Assembly: GCA_019752595.1 (NCBI GenBank)
Contig: JAIELV010000001.1
Coordinates: 378,551-442,550 of the forward strand
Length of the DNA stretch: 64,000 nt
Direction of reading: 5' to 3'
From: Patescibacteria group bacterium
GTDB taxonomy: Bacteria; Patescibacteriota; Minisyncoccia; Phycocordibacterales; Phycocordibacteraceae
In this document: one piece after another, positions 3,826-63,532 of the stretch
How positions within the stretch are numbered: position 1 is the stretch's first letter
Layout: every line of letters begins with the position of its first letter
Translations under genes and position numbers: made by a program
The notes under the pieces: generated by a model
Told to the model about the DNA's origin: nothing
Databases searched by the model: none
The model's input: the letters and a program-made list of their open reading frames with translations, nothing else

Positions 3826-3857
3826 AAAAAATCCCCGCACTCGCGGGGATTTTTTGT
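3826..3857. terminator. bidirectional rho-independent terminator
   Basis: CCCCGCACTCGCGGGG stem flanked by an A-run and a T-run, between convergent rpsA and pth. Confidence 0.6.
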
Positions 3858-4456
3858 TAATTAAATCGGTTCATCGCCACTGTGTGGCCCTCGACAGCAA
3901 TTGTCTCCACCGCTTCTATCACTTTCTTCATTACCTTTTTATATTCGGTTAAATTATCGGGTGAAAATTTGCCCAAGAGAAATTTCAACACTTTCTCCTC
4001 CCCTGTTGGCTTCTTTGCAATACCTTTTGGAGTCTTTGGAGAAACACCAACCCTGATGCGTATGAAATTTTTCGTCTTCACCGCTTTTATAACTGACTCG
4101 ACGCCGTTATGCCCCCCAGAACTCTTACCGCGCGAAATTTTGAACGTCCCCAACGGCATATCAAGCTCGTCGTGAATAACAATGAGGTTATCGACGTCCT
4201 TTTTTGACTTCACAAAGCGTAAAACCGCGACCCCAGATTTGTTCATAAAGGTATCTGGTATGAGCAAGGTTACTTTTTTGCTACTCAAAGTACCTGTTGA
4301 TGATTGAAATGGCGGTTTCTTCTCAATTTTCCATTCTGAAAAGTCATGCGTAGCGTGAATTCTCTCTACAACCATGCGTCCCGCATTGTGTCGCGTGTTT
4401 TCGTACTCACTTCCTGGGTTTCCTAGTCCAACTATCACAAACATAGGAATAAGCAT
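3857..4456 (-). CDS. pth: peptidyl-tRNA hydrolase
   Basis: GLGNPG and HNG motifs, about 199 aa. Confidence 0.9.
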   Translation of the reverse strand: MLIPMFVIVGLGNPGSEYENTRHNAGRMVVERIHATHDFSEWKIEKKPPFQSSTGTLSSKKVTLLIPDTFMNKSGVAVLRFVKSKKDVDNLIVIHDELDMPLGTFKISRGKSSGGHNGVESVIKAVKTKNFIRIRVGVSPKTPKGIAKKPTGEEKVLKFLLGKFSPDNLTEYKKVMKKVIEAVETIAVEGHTVAMNRFN

Positions 4457-4629
4457 ACACCGTATTAATCAGATTCTTAAACACCTAAGCGGAGAGAAGC
4501 GTTTTTGCAACACTAAGACTCGGGCAAACGCCCCGGAGTGGTGTTGCAAAAACGCTTCGCGGAGCGAGAAAGCATTGCGACACGTTTTGACCCTTGTGTG
4601 CAAATGAACTCAAGCGTACAATTTCACAC

Positions 4630-5193
4630 ATGACTCCCGATAAGAGTGCAATCTTGGACGACGTCATAAAATTTGCACTCATCGCACTCCTTATTGTCGT
4701 ACCGCTTCGATGGTTCGTCGCACAGCCGTTCATTGTGCGTGGCGCATCCATGGAGCCAGTATTCGAAAACGGCGAATATCTGATTGTTGACCAGCTCACC
4801 TACCGTTTCGAAGAGCCTGAACGTGGAGATGTCATTATCATGCGCTATCCGAAAGACCCTGACGTCTTCTTTATTAAGCGAATCGTAGGGCTACCAAGCG
4901 AAACGGTCGAACTCCAAGGGAAACAAGTCATCATCCGTCGCGGAGTAAATGAAGAATCAATCACGCTCGACCAATCATTCATCGAGCCAGAGCGGATGCG
5001 CGACGAATACGGAACCTATGCCTTAGGCGATGATGAATACTTTGTGATGGGCGACAACAGAAATGAAAGTTCCGATTCGCGCTCATGGGGTTCACTGCCA
5101 CGCGACAACATTATCGGCCGTCCGTTTATCCGCCTTTTCCCGCCAACACGAATTGATCTTTTCCCCGGTCACATTACAACTCAACCACAATAA
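4630..5193 (+). CDS. lepB: signal peptidase I
   Basis: N-terminal TM helix, catalytic SMEP (Ser) box, GDNRxxSxDSR box. An alternative start is at 4594. Confidence 0.85.
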   Translation: MTPDKSAILDDVIKFALIALLIVVPLRWFVAQPFIVRGASMEPVFENGEYLIVDQLTYRFEEPERGDVIIMRYPKDPDVFFIKRIVGLPSETVELQGKQVIIRRGVNEESITLDQSFIEPERMRDEYGTYALGDDEYFVMGDNRNESSDSRSWGSLPRDNIIGRPFIRLFPPTRIDLFPGHITTQPQ

Positions 5194-5202
5194 AAAAATT
5201 CT

Positions 5203-6312
5203 ATGCGTTCACTTGAGCGAGGCACACGAAGAGAGACACTTGAGAAAGCGATAGCGCGTATTGCGTTCGCCTACGGATTCACCTCGCAACCTGTTGCGAT
5301 TTCACGAAAGACTGCGAGCGCTACGCACGCCGACACAAAAACCGCTGCATCACTTTCACTTTTGAAATCTGCAACTACCACGGTGTCTGCAGGACCACTG
5401 CAACTCTGGGGCGCATTGAAAACAACACATGGCACCGCACTCTCACTCGCGGTCGTCGGCACCAAACAGGCAATCGGCAACGCACTCGTGGTGAAAACAG
5501 CGCTCTCGATTGTTGAACTTTCAGGTTTTGAAAATCCTTCGGTCATGGTGTCTTCTGTTGGTGACGCAGAATCAAAACGTCGCTTCACGCGCGAGCTAGG
5601 AAACTTCTTTAAGAAAAACGCTGAACATATACCCACTGACCTGAAAGCGAAAGTCGCGCATGATCCTGATGGTGCGTACCGCGAACTTTTGACACGAAAA
5701 GATCCAATGATGGAAAAAGCACCTCGCACTATTGATTACCTTTCTGAGAACTCAAGAAAAGCTATGCTTGAAACGCTTTCGTTCTTTGAAGCAGTTGGCA
5801 TTGGCTATACCATCGACGCACGCCTCCACGGCGAAGCAGGAGTTGCGGGCGATTTGGTATTCGCAATAGACGCGCAAGACAAATCGGGCGAACGCATCCG
5901 TATCGCAACAGGCGGACGTTTTGAAAATGAAACAAAGAAAGCGGGACTTCCTGAAGGTCGCACTGCAACCGCGCTTACCCTCTCCCTCTCAAAGGCTCTG
6001 CGATTGGACGAAATGCAACAGGCACCGAACTGTTTCGTGGTTCACGTCGGCGATGCAGCAAAATTGAAGGCATTCACTCTTCTTGAATCACTCTGGAAGG
6101 CACACGTTGCGGTGACCCAAACCCTTATGTCTGACAACTTTCGCGACCAAATAGAGAAAGGCAGGCTTTCAGGCGCAAAATATCTTGCCATCATCGGTCA
6201 ACGAGAAGCTCTCGACAGTACGATCATTGTGAGAAATGTAGCGACCCAAATGCAGACCACGCTCCCTATGGAAAAACTTGAAGGATACGTCCTTCGCGGT
6301 GCACGTGCATAG
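5203..6312 (+). CDS. histidyl-tRNA synthetase-like protein (class II aaRS fold plus anticodon-binding domain) with a degenerate motif 2
   Basis: N-terminal GTRRETLEKAIARIAFAYGF matches the HisRS N-terminus, ATGGRFE resembles motif 3 (GGRYD), and the C-terminal AKYLAIIGQREALDSTIIVRN resembles an HGTP_anticodon domain. The motif-2 arginines (FRYERPQ.GR.R.F) are replaced (LKTTHGTALSLAVV). Confidence 0.55.
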   Translation: MRSLERGTRRETLEKAIARIAFAYGFTSQPVAISRKTASATHADTKTAASLSLLKSATTTVSAGPLQLWGALKTTHGTALSLAVVGTKQAIGNALVVKTALSIVELSGFENPSVMVSSVGDAESKRRFTRELGNFFKKNAEHIPTDLKAKVAHDPDGAYRELLTRKDPMMEKAPRTIDYLSENSRKAMLETLSFFEAVGIGYTIDARLHGEAGVAGDLVFAIDAQDKSGERIRIATGGRFENETKKAGLPEGRTATALTLSLSKALRLDEMQQAPNCFVVHVGDAAKLKAFTLLESLWKAHVAVTQTLMSDNFRDQIEKGRLSGAKYLAIIGQREALDSTIIVRNVATQMQTTLPMEKLEGYVLRGARA

Positions 6313-6322
6313 AAGTTGAAAC

Positions 6323-6877
6323 ATGCCAAGACGGCAAGAACAAAAACCATACACCCCTGAAATTCTAGCGCGCGCCGAGGCACTTCATAGTTCTGGTCTT
6401 ATGTGGAAGACAGTCGCGGAGAGAATCGGACACTCGTTTGGTTCCCTCATGACAACTCGTTCTCAAATAAAAAAGAACACAACTCGTGTGACGGCTGGAG
6501 AAATGCGTGCAGAGTCTGCGCGAAAAATGGCGTACGTAGAAACATTGATTTCACTTGGAATGAAGCCGAAGGAAATGCAGCACGTCTTGAAACTATCAGG
6601 CAGCGCGTTGTCTATGCGATTTCTGAGCTGGGGCTTAGATCGCGAAGAACGCGTGGCGCTACGCCTCGCGGATGAAATATTTGCAGGCACACTACAAAAA
6701 GCGCGAGCGATTGTCCGCGAATATAGTGGCTCATCTCTACCAGCAAGGAAAAGTGCCGAGTTACGTGAACTAAAGCGAGAACTTCATCGCCGCTCTGAGC
6801 TGAGACTCGCTGAAATCGAAGCCCTTGTCCATAATTCCCAAGACGCGTCTATTTCAGAAACTCACTCGGAAGCGTGA
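6323..6877 (+). CDS. hypothetical protein, possibly HTH-containing
   Basis: 184-aa ORF in a co-directional operon-like array. No clear motif. Confidence 0.45.
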   Translation: MPRRQEQKPYTPEILARAEALHSSGLMWKTVAERIGHSFGSLMTTRSQIKKNTTRVTAGEMRAESARKMAYVETLISLGMKPKEMQHVLKLSGSALSMRFLSWGLDREERVALRLADEIFAGTLQKARAIVREYSGSSLPARKSAELRELKRELHRRSELRLAEIEALVHNSQDASISETHSEA

Positions 6878-7170: not shown

Positions 7171-7563
7171 GTGGCTTCCTTCTCTCTCGTCAATGAAACC
7201 CGAAACCCTCTCCTGAGGGTTTCTTTTCGTAAAATCGCAAAGGAAGTTATGGGCGAGAAGTATTCCCTGTCGGTTATTTTCACTACACCGAAAAAAATAG
7301 CTAAGTTGAATGGAAGCTACCGCGGGAAGCCTACTTCAACAGACATCCTTTCGTTCGGGCTCTCAAAAACAGAGGGCGAACTCTACATTTCAATGCCTGA
7401 TGTTGTAAAAAAAGCCCCACTTTTCTACCTTTCAACTAAAAAATATCTCGAGTACCTGTACATTCACGGCCTCATACACCTCAAAGGTTTTGATCACGGA
7501 CGAAAAATGGAAGCGGTAGAGAAAAAATACTGCAAACGGTTCGGGTTCACGCATCCCTCGTAA
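7171..7563 (+). CDS. ybeY: rRNA maturation endoribonuclease YbeY
   Basis: TDILSF motif and H..HxxGxDH zinc motif (HGLIHLKGFDH). Confidence 0.8.
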   Translation: MASFSLVNETRNPLLRVSFRKIAKEVMGEKYSLSVIFTTPKKIAKLNGSYRGKPTSTDILSFGLSKTEGELYISMPDVVKKAPLFYLSTKKYLEYLYIHGLIHLKGFDHGRKMEAVEKKYCKRFGFTHPS

Positions 7564-32782: not shown

Positions 32783-33222
32783 TCTACTCTTCCTTCGGTA
32801 TTAACTGAAATCGTCGCGGTCTTTGCACCATCAGTCACAGCCATGGCTGCCGCGGTTGATGTGCCAGAAAGCTGTCCAAATACAAACTCGGTGTCACCGC
32901 CAGTCGTCACTCCCGCGCCTTTTGCTATCGAACGCTTATTCGTCCCCGCAACAAAAGAAACCCCCTCAAACAAGGTGTACTGAGCTGCTTCAACCTTTAG
33001 GCCATGCGAAGTCTGATTAATATTTGAAAGCGCTTTCGTACGCTGCCCCATCAGCAGAGTTGCTATCAGGTTCTGCTCATTGAGCGCCACGGAACGGCCA
33101 ATCGCGTCCGTCATAAAAACCGCTCCGGTACCTAGAATGACCGAAAGAATCCCAATGACGACAATCACTTCGATCATCGAAAATGCGCGTACCGTGTTAC
33201 CGCTGGAGGCTTTGTGTAATTT
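32776..33222 (-). CDS. pseudopilin (GspH/FimT-like)
   Basis: RAFSMIEVIVVIGIL class III signal. Start chosen at MKLHKASS. Confidence 0.7.
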   Translation of the reverse strand, partial: KLHKASSGNTVRAFSMIEVIVVIGILSVILGTGAVFMTDAIGRSVALNEQNLIATLLMGQRTKALSNINQTSHGLKVEAAQYTLFEGVSFVAGTNKRSIAKGAGVTTGGDTEFVFGQLSGTSTAAAMAVTDGAKTATISVNTEGRVEW

Positions 33223-34348
33223 CATATATAGGAGCAATAACGGAAACGGCAACAAATCCCACAACGAGACCCATAACAAGCATCAAAATAGGCTCGAGAA
33301 TCGAAGAAAGATTTTTCGTCAAATCGTTCAGCTCGGCTTCATACATATCAGAAAGATACAAAAGCGTGTCAGACAACGACCCTGTTTTCTCGCCGATTGC
33401 TATCATGTGTGTCGTCATCGCGGGGAAGAACGGTGCGCGCTTTGAAAGCGTTTTAGAAATCTGCTCCCCTCGCTCAGCAGATTTTGCAAGTGCCAGATAT
33501 TCTTTTCGGTACACAAGATTCTCTGTCGTTTCCGCGACAATCAAGAGTGCGTCGGTAATTTTCAAACCGCTTTTCAGGAGAAGTCCGAGCGTGCGGTTAA
33601 AGTTCGACATGTTGTATGCGGCCATGATGGTGCCGACAATCGGCATTTTCAGAAACGCGTAGTCGAATACAAAACGGACCTTCTCGCTTGCACGGATGAT
33701 CATCGCCAGAGCGAACCAGCACGCAGCAAGGACGAAGAACGTTAGGATGCCATGTTTCTGCAAGAACGTACTCATCGCCAAAAGCATCTTCGTGGTGAAC
33801 GGGAGTTCAACTGCAAGAGATGCAAAAATCGGCATTATTTTTGGGAATATAAACACCGTCAAAAGCCCAGTGATTCCCAAGGTCGCAAGCGTAATAACGA
33901 TAGGATACACGAGAGCGCCAGTAATACGTCGCTTCAACTCATACCGCTTTTCAAGCTCATTCGCGAGATATATAAGGTTCTGAGAAAGAATGCCTGACAG
34001 TTCCCCAACCTTGATGATGTTCAAAGCAAAGTGGCCGAATGTATTCCCAAAACGCTTCATTGAAACGTGCAAATACTGCCCGCTTGAAATGTCGGTTATA
34101 AGGCGTTCATACACGCGCTGGGCGCCTCCCCCTTTCGACTGCTCTTTCAATATGTGGAGACTTTCAAGAATTGGTACGTTTGACTTGATAAGAAACGAAA
34201 GGCGCTTCGCAAAAAGCATTTGGTCTTTCACTGAAAAACGTACTGACATAGAAAACAGCGGTGCCGTCTTTTTTTTCGGAGAAGCGTTCACTGTGGCTTT
34301 TATTTTTTCACGCGCAAAATACGCTTTAACTGATTCAAGAAATTTATT
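33197..34348 (-). CDS. pilC: type IV pilus assembly platform protein PilC (T2SS F-domain)
   Basis: Two GspF-type domains and polytopic membrane segments. Start chosen at MNKFLESVKAYF. Confidence 0.85.
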   Translation of the reverse strand, partial: NKFLESVKAYFAREKIKATVNASPKKKTAPLFSMSVRFSVKDQMLFAKRLSFLIKSNVPILESLHILKEQSKGGGAQRVYERLITDISSGQYLHVSMKRFGNTFGHFALNIIKVGELSGILSQNLIYLANELEKRYELKRRITGALVYPIVITLATLGITGLLTVFIFPKIMPIFASLAVELPFTTKMLLAMSTFLQKHGILTFFVLAACWFALAMIIRASEKVRFVFDYAFLKMPIVGTIMAAYNMSNFNRTLGLLLKSGLKITDALLIVAETTENLVYRKEYLALAKSAERGEQISKTLSKRAPFFPAMTTHMIAIGEKTGSLSDTLLYLSDMYEAELNDLTKNLSSILEPILMLVMGLVVGFVAVSVIAPIYEITQSLQR

Positions 34349-35558
34349 CATGGATGACACGAAGTATTTCTGCAACAGTCGTCTGCCCCTGTAGAGCCTT
34401 GGCAAGCCCGTCCTCAAACATCGTCGTCATGCCGTTTTTCACGCCGATTGCACGAATGTCGGTAGAAGATGCTTTTCTTAAAATCGCATCTCGAACTTCG
34501 GGATCCATGACCAGCACTTCGTTGACACCAATTCTTCCTGAAAATCCCGTCATATTGCACTTCTCGCATCCTTTGTGACGGTAGAGCGTGCCTAATTTCC
34601 CTTTCAGATGCTCAGGGAGAATCGAAAGCAAGTTTTCTTTCTCCGCCTCCGTTGGTTTATACGCTTCACGACAGGTGTGACAAATACGGCGCACCAGACG
34701 CTGACCGATAGCGATCGAAACGGTAGAGGCCACAAGGTATGGCTCGATTTTCATATCCAGAAGGCGTGGGAGTGTCGTCGCCGCATCATTCGTGTGAAGT
34801 GTGGAAAGTACCAAGTGTCCCGTGAGTGCGGTATTCACCGCAATCGCTGCAGTTTCTACGTCACGAATTTCACCGACCATGATGATGTCAGGGTCCTGAC
34901 GGAGCATGGAGCGCAAACCGTTTGCAAACGTCAAATCACTCCTCGGATTGACCTGTATCTGCTCGATACCCTCAATCGCATACTCAATAGGGTCTTCAAG
35001 TGTGACAATTGAAACTTCTTTTGAATTCAACATTTTAATGAGCGTGTACAGGGTTGTTGTTTTTCCACTTCCGGTCGGACCTGTAGAAAGAATCATACCG
35101 CTCGGTTTTTTCGCCGCTTTTACAATCTTCGCCGCATCGGACTCAGAAAATCCGAGCATCTCCAATGTGTAATTCGCTGCCTTGTCTGACAAAAGACGCA
35201 TAACGACATTTTCTCCGTGATACGTGGGCGCGATTGAGACGCGCACATCAACAAATTCCTCCATGTTCGGAAATACAAGGCGGAATCGACCGTCCTGCGT
35301 TGCCTGATGCTCGTCAGTGCGGAGTCCTGAAATAATTTTAATTCTCGAAACCACTTCTCCGTGAATTTCTTTTGGAAATATATATACCTCCTGCAAAACA
35401 CCGTCGATACGAAATCGGATTTTTACCCCAGAAGGGGTTGGGTCGACATGTATGTCAGAGGCTCGACTTTCCTGCGCTTTTTCAATAAGCGCGTCAACAA
35501 GGGAAATAATTGAAAGATGAGCCCCCTTTGCAAGTTCCTGTTCTACTGAGGTCGGCAT
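34344..35558 (-). CDS. pilB: type IV pilus assembly ATPase PilB/GspE family
   Basis: Walker A GPTGSGKTT, Asp box, His box, and CxxC...CxxC zinc motif. Start chosen at MPTSVEQ so the terminator at 35638-35668 stays intergenic. Confidence 0.88.
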   Translation of the reverse strand: MPTSVEQELAKGAHLSIISLVDALIEKAQESRASDIHVDPTPSGVKIRFRIDGVLQEVYIFPKEIHGEVVSRIKIISGLRTDEHQATQDGRFRLVFPNMEEFVDVRVSIAPTYHGENVVMRLLSDKAANYTLEMLGFSESDAAKIVKAAKKPSGMILSTGPTGSGKTTTLYTLIKMLNSKEVSIVTLEDPIEYAIEGIEQIQVNPRSDLTFANGLRSMLRQDPDIIMVGEIRDVETAAIAVNTALTGHLVLSTLHTNDAATTLPRLLDMKIEPYLVASTVSIAIGQRLVRRICHTCREAYKPTEAEKENLLSILPEHLKGKLGTLYRHKGCEKCNMTGFSGRIGVNEVLVMDPEVRDAILRKASSTDIRAIGVKNGMTTMFEDGLAKALQGQTTVAEILRVIHE

Positions 35559-35637
35559 AGAAAATAAGCCACTCGAATTCCCTGCGGGAAAAGAGCGGCT
35601 TACGCCACTATACGCCTGTTTTGCCAAGGGGGCAAGA

Positions 35638-35668
35638 CAAAAAAACCGCCCAACTGGGCGGTTTTTTA
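35638..35668 (-). terminator. rho-independent terminator
   Basis: ACCGCCCAACTGGGCGGT plus a T-run on the minus strand. Confidence 0.6.
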
Positions 35669-35683
35669 CCAAATTTGTAACCA

Positions 35684-36514
35684 TTATTCGTGGTCTTCTC
35701 CTTCCCCAGGAAGCCAAAAGACGTGTGTGATAAGGGTCAAATCGCCGTCCTTTTTTGCAAACTCGTTTGCGCGCCCCTGTGCGTCGCGCCCGATAGCGAC
35801 ACCGAATTCAGGATGCTCCGCATTCCCTGCCTGAAGAGCAGCGTGTGCCGCGCCCAAGGCTTTGCCTGCCAACTGCCCTACCGTAGTGGAAGAATCCGTA
35901 TGCGCGTACATTAATTCAAGCTGAGCGAAGTCGTGCGCATTCGGATGTTCGTTTGCAGGATCGGTTGCGCTTGCCCCACCCGCTCCGCCGTCAGGGTCGT
36001 TCGTGTAATCCACACAGGAGCCGAGGTTCGCGTTGTTGAATGCCTCATCCTGGTGCGCGAGTCCGAATGCGTGCGCAACTTCCTGACACATCACCAGACG
36101 GCGCCATGCAGGAGCATTATAGGAAGCAGTATTGAAGTACGAATCATTCATCTTCGCAGTTCCTTTGGTGATATGACCGTTACTGTCCGCCCAGATTGAG
36201 GCAATGCCAAGCCAGCCGTTGTTTCCATACGCAGCATTGCAGACCTCAATTCTTCCCGTTGTTCCTTTGCACTGTCGCGGACTCACGAGCCCCGCAACAA
36301 TAGTGGTGTCCAATACTGATGATGCGCTCCAATCGGAAGATGCTTCCGCAAGATACGCATCCCAGACACTTGTTACGTTGTCGCCTAATTTCAGCGTGAA
36401 CGGATTTGAGGTCCGCGCCCAATGATAATTCCCCCATGAGTGGGAAGCGTATGCCACTCCCGCAACAGAGAACGCGAGAAGAAGTGCGAACGCAAGCAAT
36501 GATTTTCTAAGCAT
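35684..36514 (-). CDS. secreted protein with a metzincin-like motif (putative metalloprotease-like)
   Basis: Signal peptide MLRKSLLAFALLLAFSVAGVAYA. CQEVAHAFGLAHQDE resembles HxxGxxH zinc motifs but lacks a canonical HExxH. Confidence 0.4.
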   Translation of the reverse strand: MLRKSLLAFALLLAFSVAGVAYASHSWGNYHWARTSNPFTLKLGDNVTSVWDAYLAEASSDWSASSVLDTTIVAGLVSPRQCKGTTGRIEVCNAAYGNNGWLGIASIWADSNGHITKGTAKMNDSYFNTASYNAPAWRRLVMCQEVAHAFGLAHQDEAFNNANLGSCVDYTNDPDGGAGGASATDPANEHPNAHDFAQLELMYAHTDSSTTVGQLAGKALGAAHAALQAGNAEHPEFGVAIGRDAQGRANEFAKKDGDLTLITHVFWLPGEGEDHE

Positions 36515-36639: not shown

Positions 36640-39600
36640 TTAGTTATCAGTCCAAGGTACAAGTGTCGGTAATTCGAGGCTCAAAGCAGGACACTCAATA
36701 AGATTCATCTGGCGCAGAGTGGTGATGTACACCAAGCCTGTTGCCGACGTCAAATTCCACGGCTTCAAGATTGAATCAGGGTTTGATGCCTGGAATGCCT
36801 TCACTGCCTCTTCGGTCATCGGACCAAAGAAACCTGTAATCGGAAGGTTTGCACCAACCCATTTGTTGAGGAATGCCTGAAGTTTCTTCACTTGTTCAAG
36901 GTCGTTCTTTGACCAAGCGCGCTTCAAGAATTTATCCATGTACAAACCGCAGGTTTCTCCAAGCACTCCCCCTGCACCGTCGGTGTTGCTGGGGCCGATT
37001 GAAGCACCGAGAACGAACGGACCGTTACTGCCGTTCGAGAACAACTGAGGGTCTGCGCCACCTGAACCGCCGCCTCCGCCACCGCCGTTACCTGGATTAT
37101 TTACTTCAGTTAACGATGTTGGTGAATACGAATTCGGATTGTTTGGGTCATTGTCCAAGTGACAGCCTGGGTCGCCAGCGTCTGAAAGACCGTCGCCGTC
37201 GTTATCCAAACCGTCTGAACAATCGAAGTCAGGATTCCAGACGTTTGTGAAGGTACAAGTGACTACATCACCTGCATCAACAAGTATCTGATGACCATTT
37301 GTGATTGATTCGCCTGCTGATTGACCGTCATAGAGGCAGGACACGGAACCGAAATCCCAGTTTGACGGAATTCCCGTTTCAACAATCGTGTGCGTTCCTT
37401 CCGTGTTCAGAGTGAGTGTGTTCATTCCGTCTTCGGAATCAAAGTTTTGGGCTTCGCCTCCGTTAAGAGAGAAGCTGAACTGATTGAAGAAGGTCGGAGG
37501 AATTTCCCCATCGTACGAAAGTACTTTCTTCACAATCAAGACAGGCTTGAAAGGTGCGCAATCAGGGTCCGCAAGGTCTATAAGGTTGTCACCGTCGTTG
37601 TCTGATTCATCAGTACACATAGCGAGCGTAGTTTCATTTCCTTCGCTCTGTCCGTTTGGATCATATACCGTACCGCCGTCACCGTTATCGACGAAACAAC
37701 CTGGATCATTTTGGTCAATCAAACCATCTGACGGGACATCGTTTTCAATACCGTCTGCACACGCTGGCTTATCATTGTTTGTGATTGTACAGGTTGCAGT
37801 TTGTCCGAGAAGCAAACTTCCTGAGCATGACTCAGAGTGCGTAACGGTGTAACCAGCGTTCGTGCTCGAATCTTCAAGTACAGAGTAACTTCCAGGAAGG
37901 ATTGAGAGGAGCACTTCTCCAACCGTGTCGAAGAAGTATGAAGAGCCTGTATTGTTCAACTTGAATGAGAACGTCGAGGTTGCATTCGTCTTGCCGTTGT
38001 CATTCACGAGTACTTTCTTCACCAAGACCGTCGTTGCTTGATCGTTATTCGCGAAGTAACACTGCTTCGTCTCGCCGATTGCAATAGAACCGCTGCATGC
38101 ACCTGTCATCGTTGCTGTGTATCCCTGTACAGGATCTTCAGTAACAGTGAATGTGCCAGGGAGAACAAAAATCGTGTTTTGCCCTGTACCTGAACTGATT
38201 GGCGTAAACGCGGTGTCGAGGAACGAAGTCGTTCCGCTGTTTGTCGTGTATGAGAGGTCGAATGTAAAGTCTGCAGGACCTTTCGTGCCACCAAGGTTGT
38301 CATTAATTACCGTTTTGTGAACAATTACTTTCGGAATGTATCCACTGCAACCAGAATCATTCAGGTCAACAAATGTATCTCCATCGTTATCCTGTCCGTC
38401 AGAGCAGGTAGCGAGCGTTGATTCGTTTCCTTCTGAAGTTGCATTGGCGTTGTATGAATCAGGATTATTTGCCTGAAGGTCAGTGTGACAACCAGGGTCT
38501 GCTGAATCCGTCAAACCGTCGCCATCATCGTCTGTACCGTTTGAGCATGCAGGGAGCGGAATATCGTTGTTCGTAATTGTACAGATAACATTCTGACCCA
38601 GGCCGACAGTAACGGTGTCAGCGTCTACCTGCGTTCCGCCTGTACATACCCATGCGGATGCCGCATATCCTGCAGGTCCTGATTCAGAAAGATTGTAATC
38701 ACCTGCGTCGAATGAAACAACGCCTGAGCTGTTGACTGAAGGACCTACACCTGAAAATCCTGTTGCACCAGTTGCTGTAAGAGTAAACGCTGAAGCGGGA
38801 GTGGTGCCGTTGTTGTCGTTGTCATCAATCACTACCTTATTAAGCGTGAGTGAAGAAGTGTTGTCATCGTTTACAATCGTACAATTTTTGTTTTCACCGA
38901 TAGCAAGCGTGATTGTGCCGTTTGAAGCACAGTCACCGCCGATGGTACCTGTGTATCCCGCTGCCGCTTCTTCGCTCACCGTGTACGTGCCTGCGTTCAA
39001 TGTGTTCGCAACACCCGATGTAACAATTGAGCTTGCAATCTTCAAGATAAAGTCAGCGATAACCTTCACGCCGCCGTTGTCGTTCGTTACAGTCTTTGTG
39101 ACGCTAAGGGTCGGTGCAATATCATTGTTTACAATCGTACAGGTCTTGTTCTGACCTGCAGACAAAGTGACGGTGCCGTTTGCTGCACAATCGCCACCAA
39201 ACGTTGCCGCGTATCCTGCTACATTCGTTTCGGAAACTGTGTGCGCACCGATAGAAACTGTAGCGGGAGTTCCTGATGTCGTAGGATTGCCGTCGATAAA
39301 GAGTGGGAAATCGCCAACACCAAGCGTTCCGCCGTTGTCGTTCGTAACCGTCTTCACCACAGTCAATTTCGGAGCAGGAAGCGCGTTGAATGCGACGCAG
39401 TGATAAGTTGTCGCAAATGCTGGAGAAGAAATGCTGTCGTAGTTGTCGTAGTTTTCTACGTCAGAGGAGCAGTAAATTTCTGCTGATACGTTTCCACCAG
39501 AAACTCCCGTGAACGGAACATAGTTAGCCTGCATCTGCTCGCGAACCCAAACGGATGAACCTGCTGGTACTTGTGCAGTTGCTACACCACTTCCATTTGT

Positions 39601-40689
39601 TGCAGGGAACGGCGTCCATGAGCCACCAGCTGCACCGACGTTGTCTCCTGGGTTTGCTGCTGCACTTGGTGCCCATTCAAAATTCCATCCTGATTGAAGG
39701 CGGCAGTTCGGATGTGTGCTGAGGAATGTAGAAGCGGTTGACGCGGTAATGTTTGCTCCACCGCTCATGTTCGGAAGGTCTGCTTCTGAATCACAGACAA
39801 TCTTCGTTGCTGAAATAGTTGCTGGAACTGGGTCATCGTTGTTCGTAATCGTACAGGTTGAAGTACCACCTGCAGTCACAGTCAAAACACAGCTGTTAGA
39901 TGTGTTTGGAGAATAGCTGACCGCGTACCCAACAGGAGTAACTTCAGTAATCGTGTACGTACCAGGAGCTACTGAAAGTGAGTTTGAACCGTCTGCCTCA
40001 AACTGAATCGGGGAACCGTTGTTTACCTTGAATGAGAAGTTAGAAGCCGTTGCTGTTCCTCCGCTGTTGTTGGTAACAGTCTTATTTACGACAATCGTTC
40101 CTGGCATTGCGTCTCCCGTAAGGAGAACGTCATCAAGTCGGAATTTATCACTTGAAGAGAGGCTGGAGCCGTAAAATCTGATTCTGAAGTTCGCATTGTT
40201 ATTTGCACCTGAAGGAAGCGAGTGGGAAGCCTGAAGCCAGTTTGATTGTGTGGGTGAATCATCGTAGTTAACGATAGTGGTCCACGTACTCCCCCCGTTT
40301 GACGACCACTGAACCTCAAGTTCGTCGTCGGCAGAAAGACCGCCAGGAATTTTATACCAATACGAGAGCACAATATTTTGAGAACCGACAGTCGATATAT
40401 TTTTCCTCAACTCGTCACCATTCGCATCCTTTACTTCGGCTGCGCTAGAACCGCCGTGTGTATCGTTGATGATGTCCCAATCGTTATCAGCAGCCGACCA
40501 CTGAGAAAAATTTCCTGTTTCAAATCCATCTGAAAAAAGCGTCGCTGCCTGCGCATTCTGCGGAAACGCGAGAAGCGCACCTGCCGATGTAATAAGGAGA
40601 GCCAAAATCGTAAGAGAGCTTACGAGGTTTTTTGCCCAGCCCGAAATCCCATAAAACTTAGTAATGTTGATCATAAAATAAATACTCAA
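36640..40689 (-). CDS. giant cell-surface repeat protein (1349 aa) with a C-terminal peptidoglycan-binding-like domain
   Basis: Signal peptide. More than 8 repeated units of about 100 aa (KTVTNDNGGT...TCTITNNDI), Asp-rich DGxDNDGDGxxD calcium-binding-like inserts, and a C-terminal KKLQAFLNKW...GFFGPMTEEAVKAFQ PG_binding_1-like motif. Confidence 0.75.
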   Translation of the reverse strand: MSIYFMINITKFYGISGWAKNLVSSLTILALLITSAGALLAFPQNAQAATLFSDGFETGNFSQWSAADNDWDIINDTHGGSSAAEVKDANGDELRKNISTVGSQNIVLSYWYKIPGGLSADDELEVQWSSNGGSTWTTIVNYDDSPTQSNWLQASHSLPSGANNNANFRIRFYGSSLSSSDKFRLDDVLLTGDAMPGTIVVNKTVTNNSGGTATASNFSFKVNNGSPIQFEADGSNSLSVAPGTYTITEVTPVGYAVSYSPNTSNSCVLTVTAGGTSTCTITNNDDPVPATISATKIVCDSEADLPNMSGGANITASTASTFLSTHPNCRLQSGWNFEWAPSAAANPGDNVGAAGGSWTPFPATNGSGVATAQVPAGSSVWVREQMQANYVPFTGVSGGNVSAEIYCSSDVENYDNYDSISSPAFATTYHCVAFNALPAPKLTVVKTVTNDNGGTLGVGDFPLFIDGNPTTSGTPATVSIGAHTVSETNVAGYAATFGGDCAANGTVTLSAGQNKTCTIVNNDIAPTLSVTKTVTNDNGGVKVIADFILKIASSIVTSGVANTLNAGTYTVSEEAAAGYTGTIGGDCASNGTITLAIGENKNCTIVNDDNTSSLTLNKVVIDDNDNNGTTPASAFTLTATGATGFSGVGPSVNSSGVVSFDAGDYNLSESGPAGYAASAWVCTGGTQVDADTVTVGLGQNVICTITNNDIPLPACSNGTDDDGDGLTDSADPGCHTDLQANNPDSYNANATSEGNESTLATCSDGQDNDGDTFVDLNDSGCSGYIPKVIVHKTVINDNLGGTKGPADFTFDLSYTTNSGTTSFLDTAFTPISSGTGQNTIFVLPGTFTVTEDPVQGYTATMTGACSGSIAIGETKQCYFANNDQATTVLVKKVLVNDNGKTNATSTFSFKLNNTGSSYFFDTVGEVLLSILPGSYSVLEDSSTNAGYTVTHSESCSGSLLLGQTATCTITNNDKPACADGIENDVPSDGLIDQNDPGCFVDNGDGGTVYDPNGQSEGNETTLAMCTDESDNDGDNLIDLADPDCAPFKPVLIVKKVLSYDGEIPPTFFNQFSFSLNGGEAQNFDSEDGMNTLTLNTEGTHTIVETGIPSNWDFGSVSCLYDGQSAGESITNGHQILVDAGDVVTCTFTNVWNPDFDCSDGLDNDGDGLSDAGDPGCHLDNDPNNPNSYSPTSLTEVNNPGNGGGGGGGSGGADPQLFSNGSNGPFVLGASIGPSNTDGAGGVLGETCGLYMDKFLKRAWSKNDLEQVKKLQAFLNKWVGANLPITGFFGPMTEEAVKAFQASNPDSILKPWNLTSATGLVYITTLRQMNLIECPALSLELPTLVPWTDN

Positions 40690-59689: not shown

Positions 59690-61249
59690 TTAAATGCTAC
59701 CGGAAAATCCAAGCGGAATTTCTTTCGCGAGACTTTCCAAATGTTCGGTCATAAATTGGTCTTTTTCATAATACGGGACAATTTTCCGAACCATTTCGTA
59801 CAAACTCTTTGTCTTGGAACTAAGTTGTTCTTTGCCACGAATTTCTGCAGCTTGACACGCGCACATCAATTCAAAGGCAATAATATATTTTGCGTTTTCA
59901 AAAATAGTTTTTGCTCGTCGCGCCGCGATTAGTCCCATAGAAACTATGTCTTGAAAATCCTCGGTTGAGGTTAGTGTTTGAATGGAAAGCGGAACACAAA
60001 GCGACCTATTCTCGGCAGTAAGAGAGGTTGCCATAAATTGACCTCCCATCAAACCAAACTGCAATCCGGGTACAGGAGAAAGAAAAGGCGGCAATCCATT
60101 GCTGTGATGGCTGTCCAAAAATCTATCTATTCGTCTGTCGGACAAATTTGAAAGCGTCGTGAGACTTATGGCGAGTTGGTCCATCGCCATCGCAATATAT
60201 TGGCCGTGAAAATGCCCATTGTGAAAGACATCTTGCTCGCTTTCTATAACTAATGGATTATCGTTAGAAGAATTTAATTCGTCCTCTACTACCTGACTAA
60301 TAACTTCTAGATTGTCGCGAATTGGTCCGATAATTTGCGGAGTGCATCGCAAAGAATATGCGTCTTCAATTTGAATGGGATTTCCTTGCGGATTATCCTT
60401 TCTATTTTTTTGTAATGTACTGCCGACCGAATCTTCATCGGCAATCATTTTACTATCAGCGAGAATGGCAAAAATATTTTCTGCTGTGATTTGCTGCCCT
60501 TTGTGAGGTTTAAGAGCGTGGACTCTGGGGTCAAATGGTTTTCGAGTTGCTTTCAGTGTTTCAAGTGTAATAGCCGAGACGACATCGTAAGTCGCGAGCA
60601 AACTTTTTACTTCGTCAATCAAAACAGAAGCCATACCAACCATCGCTGAAGTTCCGTTTATCATTGCCAAACCCTCTTTAAAACCAAGTGTCATTGGCTC
60701 AATTTTTGCCGCCTTTAGTGCGTCCGCACCCGATATAATTTTTCCATCAAATTTTGCTTTCCATTGGCCGATTCCGACCAACGCAATGCAAGCAAGCGGC
60801 GCAAGGTCGCCACTTGCGCCCAACGAACCCTTTTCAGGAATACAAGGAATAATCCCTGCGTTGAAAATCGCAATAAACTTTCTGAAATTTTCTTCGGAAA
60901 TTGCAGAATTACCTCTCGCTAAAGAGTGTATGCGAGCGAGCATAGTTGCCCGCACGATTTCATCGGGCAGAAAATTTCCTACATTGGTCGCGACACCATT
61001 GAGCAAATTTACTTGCAACTCACCGAGTTTGTTTTCCGGAATAAGCCAACTCACAAAACCTCCCATTCCGGTATTTACTCCGTAAATAGTTCTTCCGTCT
61101 TTTACAAGTTTTTCGAGTGTTTGGCGGCACTTGGCAACTCGCTCGAAAACCTCATTATCAAAATCAATAGTCGCCTTTGGATTACGCGCAACCGCAACAA
61201 GCCCTGCGAGGGTAAGTTGTTCCGAATCCATTTTAAATACGGTTTCCAT
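59690..61249 (-). CDS. histidine/aromatic amino-acid ammonia-lyase (MIO-dependent HAL/PAL/TAL family)
   Basis: 519 aa. GSLGASGDLAPLA carries the Ala-Ser-Gly MIO-forming triad. Hairpin terminator at 59641-59685. Confidence 0.85.
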   Translation of the reverse strand: METVFKMDSEQLTLAGLVAVARNPKATIDFDNEVFERVAKCRQTLEKLVKDGRTIYGVNTGMGGFVSWLIPENKLGELQVNLLNGVATNVGNFLPDEIVRATMLARIHSLARGNSAISEENFRKFIAIFNAGIIPCIPEKGSLGASGDLAPLACIALVGIGQWKAKFDGKIISGADALKAAKIEPMTLGFKEGLAMINGTSAMVGMASVLIDEVKSLLATYDVVSAITLETLKATRKPFDPRVHALKPHKGQQITAENIFAILADSKMIADEDSVGSTLQKNRKDNPQGNPIQIEDAYSLRCTPQIIGPIRDNLEVISQVVEDELNSSNDNPLVIESEQDVFHNGHFHGQYIAMAMDQLAISLTTLSNLSDRRIDRFLDSHHSNGLPPFLSPVPGLQFGLMGGQFMATSLTAENRSLCVPLSIQTLTSTEDFQDIVSMGLIAARRAKTIFENAKYIIAFELMCACQAAEIRGKEQLSSKTKSLYEMVRKIVPYYEKDQFMTEHLESLAKEIPLGFSGSI

Positions 61250-61731: not shown

Positions 61732-61857
61732 CTTGATACTTCCATCGGATTTAATTCCGAATCTGCGCCCGAGGCGGGCGGGCGCAGATGCATTTTCGCG
61801 CGCAGACGCGCGGTATTCTCTGACGGCGGGGAGAATCCGAAATGCGGGGATTTGCCC
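61726..61857. repeat. IR2-L: about 132-bp inverted repeat, perfect reverse complement of 63272-63405
   Basis: Direct comparison. Contains internal hairpins (TCTGCGCCCG-AGGC-GGGCGGGCGCAGA). Confidence 0.9.
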
Positions 61858-61879
61858 TTGTTTCAATCCAAAACCACTT

Positions 61880-63532
61880 ATGGATAACAAACCAAAATAT
61901 TTTCTATACGCGCGTAAGTCGTCAGAGGATGATGACCGCCAAGTGATGAGCATTGAGGCGCAACTGTTTGAACTGCGTGAATACGCGTGTAAAGAAAACC
62001 TTGAAATTCTTGAGGAATTTCAAGAGTCGAAAAGCGCAAAGACACCCGGCCGTGATATTTTCGGCCTCCTCATGGCGAAAATTGAGCGTATGGACGGCGT
62101 AGGCATACTCGCGTGGCATCCCGATAGGTTGGCGCGTAATAGCGTGGACGGAGGCAGAGTTATTTATGCCGTAGACACGCGCAAACTGGTGTCTATGCGC
62201 TTTCCGACATTTTGGTTTGAACCCACCCCGCAGGGGCTGTTTATGTTGCAAGTGGCGTTCGGCCAATCGAAATATTATTCCGATAATTTGAGTGAGAATA
62301 TCAAACGGGGTATCCGCCAAAAATTGCGACGAGGCGAGTGGTTGAACTGCGCTCCCTTTGGCTATCAGAATAATTTGCGTATCAGGAATATCGAACCGCA
62401 CCTAACCGAAGCGCGTATCGTGAAATTAGCGTACGAAGAATACGCCAAAGGGTCGCACACTCTCGTTTCGCTCGCGCAATTTTTGGCGGAGCTGGGCGTA
62501 CTTACGAAAAACCGAACGCCACTTGCCAAAGTTTCCATCAAACGGCTTCTAACGCACCGCGTCTATATCGGCTTTGTGAAGCACGCAGGCGAATGGTTTG
62601 ACGGAAACTTTGAGCCAATTCTTTCACCGCAATTATTTGAAGCCGTACAGAAAATCGTCGTGAGCAAGGAACGGCCGCGCAAAAGGAAAATCAAGCACGA
62701 TTTTCCTTTTACCGGACTTTTTCGATGTGGCGAGTGCGGAAGCATGATTAGCGCACAATGGGCAACTGGAAAATCCGGCGGTCGCTACCGCTATTATCGG
62801 TGTTCGAAAAAGCGCGGCCGTTGCTCTCAACCGTATGTGCAGGAAAGTGAGTTAGCGGACAAAATCACGGCACGGCTTCAAACAATCTCACTCCCCGATA
62901 GGTATACCGGCTGGATGCTGAACAAAGTGGACGAATGGGAGCGCGAAGAAACCGCCTCAACGGGGAGCGAGGTTCAAAATCTTTCCGAGCAAATCAAAGC
63001 GAACGAGGCACGCATGGAGAAACTCGTTTCTGCGTACTTAGATAACGATGTACCGAAAGAAATGTACTTGAAGCGAAAAGACGCGCTCATGCGTGTCCTC
63101 GCCGCTTTGAAAGTCGAAAAGAAAAATTTTGAACGCGGAAGAAAGAATTGGGTCGAACCCCTGCAGAAGTGGATTTTGGATATGAAACAAGCCGATTTTT
63201 TGTCCTCATCCAGCAATTTCGGAGAAATTGCCTCCTTCGTCAAAAAAGTCGGAACGAACCCTATGGTTCGTGGCAAATCCCCGCATTTCGGATTCTCCCC
63301 GCCGTCAGAGAATACCGCGCGTCTGCGCGCGAAAATGCATCTGCGCCCGCCCGCCTCGGGCGCAGATTCGGAATTAAATCCGATGGAAGTATCAAGTTGC
63401 GGAGACGGCGAGATTCGAACTCGCGGAGGTTTGACCCTCACTCGCTTTCCAAGCGAGCGCACTAGACCACTATGCGACGTCTCCGTTGCCTTCTTGTATA
63501 CCATATATGTAACCTCCCTACAGCTTCCGTAG
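61880..63532 (+). CDS. large serine recombinase (resolvase domain, recombinase domain, zinc ribbon)
   Basis: YARKSSEDDDRQVMSIEAQ catalytic Ser motif near the N-terminus and a CGECG...YYRC zinc-ribbon. The C-terminal reading frame continues through IR2-R and the antisense of tRNA-Ser, so the true stop is uncertain. Confidence 0.8.
   Translation: MDNKPKYFLYARKSSEDDDRQVMSIEAQLFELREYACKENLEILEEFQESKSAKTPGRDIFGLLMAKIERMDGVGILAWHPDRLARNSVDGGRVIYAVDTRKLVSMRFPTFWFEPTPQGLFMLQVAFGQSKYYSDNLSENIKRGIRQKLRRGEWLNCAPFGYQNNLRIRNIEPHLTEARIVKLAYEEYAKGSHTLVSLAQFLAELGVLTKNRTPLAKVSIKRLLTHRVYIGFVKHAGEWFDGNFEPILSPQLFEAVQKIVVSKERPRKRKIKHDFPFTGLFRCGECGSMISAQWATGKSGGRYRYYRCSKKRGRCSQPYVQESELADKITARLQTISLPDRYTGWMLNKVDEWEREETASTGSEVQNLSEQIKANEARMEKLVSAYLDNDVPKEMYLKRKDALMRVLAALKVEKKNFERGRKNWVEPLQKWILDMKQADFLSSSSNFGEIASFVKKVGTNPMVRGKSPHFGFSPPSENTARLRAKMHLRPPASGADSELNPMEVSSCGDGEIRTRGGLTLTRFPSERTRPLCDVSVAFLYTIYVTSLQLP
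63272..63405. repeat. IR2-R: inverted repeat (partner of 61726-61857)
   Basis: Perfect reverse complement of IR2-L. Abuts the 3' end of tRNA-Ser(GGA). Confidence 0.9.
63400..63484 (-). tRNA. tRNA-Ser (anticodon GGA)
   Basis: Manual fold: GGAGACG acceptor, anticodon loop TTGGAAA, long variable arm, T-arm GCGAGTTCGAATCTCGC. No CCA encoded. Confidence 0.85.

Follow-up and report, generated by a model that had tools for sequence, protein, structure and literature searches.

The open reading frame (ORF) directly downstream of lepB in this DNA encodes a protein that resembles histidyl-tRNA synthetase (HisRS) and lacks a recognizable catalytic motif 2, and the original prediction left its role divided among an inactive paralog, a HisZ-like regulator and an extremely divergent sole HisRS. 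The gene for HisRS, hisS, is essential, normally single-copy and a standard bacterial marker in phylogenomics and completeness estimates, and a degenerate gene in its slot raises the question of which enzyme charges tRNA(His) in the organisms that carry it. In what follows, the window is the whole 64-kb stretch of DNA that was analysed.

The HisRS-like gene and its chromosomal slot

The gene and the neighbours that anchor its position are the following:

3857 to 4456, reverse strand: pth (peptidyl-tRNA hydrolase), upstream synteny anchor
4594 to 5193, forward strand: lepB (signal peptidase I), directly upstream of the gene and anchor of the conserved hisS slot
5203 to 6312, forward strand: HisRS-like ORF of the K-type family, with an ATG start and 369 amino acids
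6916 to 7164, forward strand: rpsU-like ORF of 82 amino acids, downstream synteny anchor
7171 to 7563, forward strand: ybeY, downstream synteny anchor

The HisRS-like ORF has the position and length first proposed for it, and all of the peptides then quoted are found in its translation (GTRRETLEKAIARIAFAYGF at residues 7-26, LKTTHGTALSLAVV at residues 72-85, and ATGGRFE at residues 235-241). It starts 10 bases past the lepB stop codon, and because the intergenic gap is only 9 bases, the two genes are probably co-transcribed. The gene content of the window, which includes S1, pth, lepB, ybeY, ftsA, ftsZ, a trxB-like gene, valS, and type IV pilus genes, is that of a Patescibacteria (CPR) genome. 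A 184-amino-acid ORF downstream of the HisRS-like gene is restricted to the closest relatives.

Homology of the window protein to HisRS is far above chance. The hisS model TIGR00442 aligns with residues 84-355 at an E-value of 5e-21, with 75.1 bits against a cutoff of 286.75; the ValRS encoded in the same window passes its own model easily (868 against a cutoff of 704). Among structures in the PDB, HisRS 1qe0 is matched with an E-value of 3.6e-15 from the single sequence and 1.3e-29 from the family profile, and the alignments to PDB HisRS entries start at about residue 84, leaving the N-terminal 80-90 residues of the window protein unaligned. Pfam recognizes only HGTP_anticodon (PF03129), which scores 37 bits (cutoff 21) and covers residues 277-363. 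AlphaFold2, given 38 aligned family sequences, yields a confident model (pLDDT 88.2, pTM 0.87), which Foldseek matches best, and along its whole length, to HisRS structures (E-value 4.5e-23); the class II core, the insertion domain and the HGTP anticodon domain are all present in the fold. The TIGR00442, PDB, Foldseek and Pfam matches thus agree on the HisRS-like fold and anticodon-binding domain that had been proposed from the sequence, and the core of this HisRS fold is eroded to the same degree as in known HisRS-derived pseudoenzymes.

Relatives of the protein were compared in a joint alignment of 367 sequences, comprising 114 of the window protein's own family (K-type), 133 of an intermediate, more distant tier (D-type), 119 canonical Paceibacteria proteins, and E. 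coli HisRS (from NC_000913.3). The D-type sequences came from a profile search of 1.84 billion representatives, and the canonical group was found with the near-canonical protein P0262 (best 120 of 1,979 matches); the few canonical proteins that have NCBI names are called histidine--tRNA ligase (PGAP). The nearest homologs carry the labels Candidatus Kaiserbacteria, Paceibacteria or Patescibacteria. A degenerate-tier HMM applied to find the closest canonical sisters gave no discrimination (canonical proteins 417-460 bits, P0262 411, P0271 380).

The order gyrA (reverse strand), MBL, S1, pth (reverse strand), lepB, X, rpsU, ybeY, ftsA, ftsZ and trxB, in which X is the HisRS-type gene, is common to K-type, D-type, near-canonical and canonical loci. 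It was seen at the K-type loci L001, L003 and L091 and the D-type locus L004, and also at L005 and L006, where the gene is near-canonical and arginine-depleted (P0262), and at L008 and L009, which carry a fully canonical hisS. GTDB genomes were scanned with a canonical alignment and JGI metagenomes with a D-type one, and the two scans together yielded 160 further loci. Among all loci that extend far enough upstream, the HisRS-type gene directly follows lepB at 107/107 canonical and 38/38 degenerate ones. In an NJ tree, the K-type falls inside the D-type and the two form one long-branched clade inside canonical Paceibacteria HisRS, a placement possibly affected by long-branch attraction; the synteny result is independent of this tree. 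The base of the degenerate clade in this tree is occupied by forms that lack one to several catalytic residues, mostly arginines; these partly degenerate forms include P0277 (R259K), P0300, P0304 and P0313 (R259Q), P0291 (R311Q), and P0335 and P0354 (R311N), together with P0262 and P0271. As judged from gene order and sequence, the window gene is a positional ortholog of hisS that appears to have degenerated in place. The suggestion of a paralog does not hold, since the gene fills the slot defined by pth, lepB, hisS, rpsU and ybeY and nests inside Paceibacteria HisRS in the NJ tree.

The degenerate hisS ortholog is widespread, extending across a large part of Paceibacteria. The degenerate form was found in 43/80 loci of a metagenome sample, and both motif 2 and the HisA motif (RGLDYY) are absent in the best 150 matches of a search of 50%-identity representatives. 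The annotations conflict: JGI assigns histidyl-tRNA synthetase, the PGAP name differs, and one D-type relative is named HisZ at NCBI ("ATP phosphoribosyltransferase regulatory subunit"), a name contradicted by HMM scores and by the HisRS origin of the family. Since the protein would be non-catalytic and the pipelines disagree, metabolic reconstructions that count the degenerate gene as HisRS would be wrong.

Catalytic and putative tRNA-binding elements of the window protein

The elements of HisRS that can be located in the window protein, whether kept, replaced or reduced to remnants, are listed here with residue numbers of the 369-amino-acid product:

5239 to 5301, forward strand: motif 1 region, retained (residues 13-33, with a helix at 13-23 and a strand at 31-33)
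5398 to 5457, forward strand: short beta-hairpin LQLWGALKTTHGTALSLAVV (residues 66-85), replacing the strands and loop of motif 2, with FRHExPQ and R113 deleted
5557 to 5802, forward strand: HisRS insertion domain (residues 119-200), SSVGDxESRRRFxRELxNFFKK ... PRTIDYLSExSRK
5821 to 5850, forward strand: HisA remnant (residues 207-216), RLHGEAGVAG in place of LVRGLDYY, with R259, Y263 and Y264 lost
5911 to 5925, forward strand: HisB motif GGRFE (canonical GGRYD; residues 237-241)
5971 to 6000, forward strand: motif 3 remnant (residues 257-266), ALTLSLSKAL in place of GFAMGLERL (GxGxGxER)
6028 to 6309, forward strand: anticodon-binding domain (HGTP_anticodon; residues 276-369), with the motif IIGQREALD..T.IVRN

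The loop of motif 2 in HisRS reads G-1/C73 of tRNA(His). The degeneration of this motif was correctly recognized at the outset: within the 367-sequence alignment, 114/114 K-type sequences lack the segment YGPYFRHENPQ and with it R113, whereas R113 is present in 118/119 canonical ones, and the alignment with E. coli HisRS does not bear out the possibility that motif 2 exists and had been misplaced. In the hairpin that stands in its place, a basic residue is frequent among K-type sequences at the position after W69-G70. The damage goes beyond motif 2, the one motif first named as degenerate, since TXE, RGxxD, HisA and motif 3 are also deleted or replaced. In comparison with the canonical protein P0305, the missing segments are the N-terminal RGxxD, the TXE strands (SLGVGTDIRDKEMYVLKTK and HLAMRP), YGPYFRHENPQ, and part of the linker of the anticodon domain; the window protein is about 70 residues shorter than its canonical relatives, and about 50 core residues are absent.

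The histidine-binding positions have fared similarly. The R259 column contains arginine in 114/119 canonical sequences and A43/Y25/G19 in the K-type, and Y263 and Y264 are present in 118/119 and 119/119 canonical sequences, respectively, with the Y264 column occupied by H, Q, E or N in the K-type. The Q127 column (Q in 117/119 canonical sequences) contains T, L, A or V in the K-type, and the E131 column contains A, T or S. In motif 3, the glycines and the conserved ATP-binding arginine are lost, no helix follows the strand in the AlphaFold2 model, and the R311 column, with arginine in 113/119 canonical sequences, reads R37/T15/S11/Q10/D10 in the K-type. The peptide ATGGRFE, taken in the original prediction to be motif-3-like, is actually the HisB motif, the real motif 3 being the degenerate ALTLSLSKAL. 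The HisB residues G285, G286 and R287 (E. coli) are (near-)invariant in the K-type, the D-type and the canonical group, and in the K-type G237 and G238 are invariant and R239 is at least 90% conserved, making HisB the sole histidine-pocket motif retained.

Because the former active-site columns vary among close relatives and are not merely changed, cryptic catalysis is very unlikely. That the window protein would be very unlikely to activate histidine or to aminoacylate tRNA is strongly supported by the alignment, and the inactivity considered from the first agrees with the deletion or replacement of the catalytic residues and the free variation of the equivalent K-type columns.

Other parts of the protein are retained. 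Motif 1 forms the dimer interface in class II synthetases, and in the K-type A21, Y24, G25 and F26 do not vary, with P30 conserved to at least 90%, at the position where canonical relatives read YYGF.P. The insertion domain, which in HisRS clamps or contacts the acceptor stem, is the best-conserved block within the K-type. The anticodon domain of the D-tier is identical to the canonical consensus at 77/90 positions, compared with 54/88, 40/80 and 31/57 in other regions, and that of the K-type is fairly diverged (36/90). Isoelectric point and net charge, considered as a hint of RNA binding, do not discriminate among the three groups, all of which are basic (median pI 8.8-9.2).

The K-type gene is under strong purifying selection, of the same strength as that acting on ftsA. 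The family comprises at least 127 clusters at 90% identity, which are 40-95% identical to the window protein and whose full-length members have about 360-390 amino acids, and its alignment contains 41 invariant columns. The dN/dS ratio is 0.024, at near-saturated dS, against the nearest relative, L091, which is identical at 81.6% of nucleotides and 95.4% of amino acids, and in the same comparison the neighbouring ftsA and rpsU-like ORF give 0.012 and 0.016, respectively.

Candidate functions and the source of His-tRNA(His)

The reading that we prefer, with a probability of roughly 0.6, is that the gene is an in-slot descendant of hisS that has lost histidine activation and is kept as a non-enzymatic, putatively dimeric, tRNA(His)-binding pseudo-synthetase, a separate HisRS being encoded elsewhere. 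According to this reading, a bacterial hisS would have lost histidine activation in its original slot in a large clade of Paceibacteria, of which Kaiserbacteria would carry the most reduced form, with motif 1, the insertion domain, the HisB strand and the anticodon-binding domain kept and the ATP- and histidine-binding elements gone. The protein would form a dimer and, as its retained domains suggest, may still bind tRNA(His) without charging it, mainly via the anticodon-binding domain; recognition of the acceptor end in the manner of HisRS would be lost, since the motif 2 loop for G-1/C73 is deleted. Its role could be that of a tRNA(His)-binding factor, whether as a sensor, by sequestering or escorting the tRNA, or as part of another enzyme in the form of a subunit or scaffold, comparable to the HisRS-like domain of GCN2 or the SerRS-like SLIMP. 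His-tRNA(His) itself would come from a different HisRS, with its gene elsewhere in the genome.

Some HisRS activity must exist in these organisms, since histidine is used normally, accounting for 1.8% of residues in the long ORFs of the window, where the zinc motif HGLIHLKGFDH is intact in the product of ybeY. A second HisRS was sought, by hmmsearch with an HMM of canonical Paceibacteria HisRS and by phmmer with E. coli HisRS, among the ORFs in all six frames of the window and of 170 loci (∼1.8 Mb). Neither the 64-kb window nor the 583 kb from 47 degenerate-slot loci nor the 1.2 Mb from 123 canonical loci yielded a second HisRS-like ORF. Exactly one HisRS-like gene is present per locus, the double matches at L080 and L161 being split genes. 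Similarly, an out-of-slot copy of the canonical Paceibacteria type was found in 0/107 informative loci from GTDB genomes and JGI metagenomes, a search that bears on copies of this type only. These results speak against a simple duplicate and favour an enzyme of another type gained by horizontal transfer. No tRNA(His) gene from which identity elements might be read was found in the window or any fetched locus.

A related proposal is that the protein serves as a non-catalytic partner subunit, which would heterodimerize with a separate catalytic HisRS-like protein or lend its anticodon domain to it, in the manner of SLIMP with SerRS2 or HisZ with HisG. We regard this as unlikely, though worth keeping in view, since no candidate partner was found in the window and the fetched loci, and the degenerate forms share no conserved new neighbour, the downstream ORF of 184 amino acids being confined to the closest relatives.

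The single HisRS-like gene per locus could also mean that a competent HisRS gene is absent altogether from Kaiserbacteria-type and related Paceibacteria, hisS having been turned in place into a tRNA-binding pseudoenzyme and His-tRNA(His) being supplied by another route. Such a route might be an enzyme of unrecognised type, with the pseudoenzyme as the subunit that recognises tRNA, or an indirect tRNA-dependent pathway, or an activity supplied by a host. This seems improbable, and as an explanation of the missing second or out-of-slot HisRS it is much less likely than a horizontally acquired enzyme.

That the protein might instead be the sole histidyl-tRNA synthetase of the cell, with a radically remodelled active site, is suggested by its occupation of the hisS slot, the strong purifying selection, the normal use of histidine, the lack of another HisRS-like ORF in the window and 170 loci, the (near-)invariant HisB GGR, and the frequent basic residue after W69-G70. 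Against it stands the deletion or replacement of the arginines that bind ATP in motifs 2 and 3, of the arginine of HisA and of the residues of the histidine pocket, together with a high variability of the equivalent columns in close relatives that a conserved catalytic site would not allow. In addition, the helix of motif 3 is missing from the predicted structure, and about 50 residues of the core are absent. To our knowledge, no class II synthetase is known to function without the arginines named here. The extremely divergent sole HisRS of the original prediction is therefore, as an enzyme, very unlikely, its active-site positions not being conserved.

A role as a HisZ-type allosteric regulator of ATP phosphoribosyltransferase, also considered originally, is scarcely credible. 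TIGR00443 gives no match to the window protein and NF008942 an insignificant one (14.9 bits against a cutoff of 643), and the relatives score 19-42 bits against cutoffs above 270, always below their own hisS scores. Searches by tblastn found no hisG, D, C, B, H, A, F or I homologs in the window or about 90 related loci, and his genes were likewise absent across ∼1.8 Mb of related loci, CPR bacteria being generally without amino-acid biosynthesis, and the family derives from the Paceibacteria slot hisS and not from the HisZ clade. Finally, a decaying pseudogene or functionless relic of hisS, which might come to mind because every catalytic motif is lost and the protein is about 70 residues shorter than its canonical relatives, is practically untenable, being refuted by the selection analysis, the reading frame intact across at least 127 clusters, the 41 invariant columns and the confidently predicted fold.

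Comparison with HisRS and synthetase-derived proteins

If the pseudo-synthetase reading is right, the positional ortholog of an essential marker gene would be a pseudoenzyme in a large part of Paceibacteria. The family would also provide a natural series from canonical HisRS through single-arginine losses and loop deletions to a minimal scaffold of 369 amino acids, along which the conversion of a synthetase into a non-catalytic tRNA-binding protein could be followed. Full-text searches of the literature found no description of a degenerate family in the hisS slot, and the degenerate ortholog is apparently an undescribed variant within the known class of synthetase-derived pseudoenzymes.

HisRS itself (hisS, TIGR00442) is the best match of the window protein in both fold and sequence, and the two share the class II core with motif 1, the helical insertion domain, the HGTP anticodon domain, HisB, the chromosomal slot and descent. 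In contrast to HisRS, the window protein is without motif 2 (R113 and its loop), TXE, HisA (R259, Y263 and Y264) and the motif 3 arginine, and its active-site columns are unconstrained. HisZ is an ancient HisRS paralog that works with the short form of HisG in histidine biosynthesis, and the K-type differs from it in its origin inside the HisRS clade, its retained anticodon domain and its want of a significant match to HisZ models. SLIMP (SerRS-like insect mitochondrial protein) and the accessory subunit of Pol gamma are likewise derived from synthetases, belong to eukaryotes or organelles, and originated as paralogs; they descend from other parent synthetases, whereas the K-type appears to be an ortholog degenerated in place.

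The HisRS-like domain of GCN2 resembles the window protein in having a HisRS fold without catalytic residues and with an anticodon-type domain. GCN2 differs in being eukaryotic and in the fusion of this domain to a kinase, while the window protein is a stand-alone ORF of 369 amino acids in a bacterial operon and its core is more deeply eroded. The HisRS-like module of GCN2 binds uncharged tRNA (PMC11363354, PMC4335047). By analogy, the simplest reading is that the K-type protein would be the bacterial equivalent of this GCN2 module.

Neighbouring open reading frames in the window

Between the HisRS-like gene (5203-6312, + strand) and an rpsU-like ORF lies one further reading frame:

6323-6877, + strand: 184-aa ORF

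Searches of Pfam and NCBIfam gave no match for this ORF, and its counterpart in the closest related locus (L091) shares 65% amino-acid identity with it (dN 0.27), whereas the genes that flank it are 95-100% identical between the two loci. The more distant loci that carry a protein of the same family, L001 and L003, do not contain the ORF, which appears to be a lineage-specific, fast-evolving insertion.

Two other regions of the window contain the following features:

33197-34417: T2SSF, a type IV pilus/T2SS gene
34344-35717: T2SSE, a type IV pilus/T2SS gene
36640-40689, - strand: 1349-aa ORF with acidic double-disulfide repeats (NF033662, four stretches)
59690-61249, - strand: MIO-type aromatic amino acid lyase/aminomutase (TIGR04475 match)
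61733-63532: large serine recombinase
63399-63484, opposite strand: tRNA-Ser, overlapping the end of the recombinase ORF

The 1349-aa ORF, located downstream of T2SSE and T2SSF, probably encodes a large surface protein. Against TIGR04475, the model for a phenylalanine aminomutase that forms D-beta-Phe, the MIO-type ORF scores 800.3 bits with the cutoff at 800; its hutH score of 494 bits falls short of the cutoff of that model. Such an enzyme is uncommon in a CPR genome. Its position adjoining the large serine recombinase and the tRNA-Ser suggests an integrated mobile element.

Names and organism labels in public records

Public names are inconsistent within the single orthologous group of the HisRS-like protein (P0129, which is MCW9054656.1, P0014, P0399, P0183, and the JGI-named family members). 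Family members are named "histidyl-tRNA synthetase" by JGI, and NCBI names in the same group include [quoted passage not shown] "ATP phosphoribosyltransferase regulatory subunit," and "hypothetical protein."

A Paceibacteria-type hisS is present in many GTDB records that bear the title "uncultured Candidatus Saccharibacteria bacterium" (loci L010, L015, L016, L019, and others). In these records, hisS stands in the Paceibacteria gene order pth-lepB-hisS and its product is 59-81% identical to a Yonathbacteria HisRS; the Saccharibacteria label is probably generic or wrong.

Partly degenerate HisRS and insertion-domain cysteines

Ten full-length, PF13393-positive HisRS proteins in the hisS slot (P0262, P0271, P0277, P0289, P0291, P0300, P0304, P0313, P0335, and P0354; loci L005 and L006) have lost one to several catalytic residues, with changes including R259K/Q, R311Q/N/T/S, and changes at R121/R123. 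These proteins look like snapshots of the first steps of degeneration.

When relatives were aligned with E. coli HisRS, seven cysteines of the insertion domain (E. coli positions 173, 193, 196, 210, 215, 230, and 233) were found to be conserved in about two-thirds of canonical Paceibacteria HisRS (76-87 of 119). Three of the seven occur in about one-third of the sequences of the intermediate, more distant degenerate tier, and none is kept in the family of the window protein. The conserved cysteines of the canonical proteins suggest a candidate metal-binding cluster, one that is absent from E. coli HisRS.
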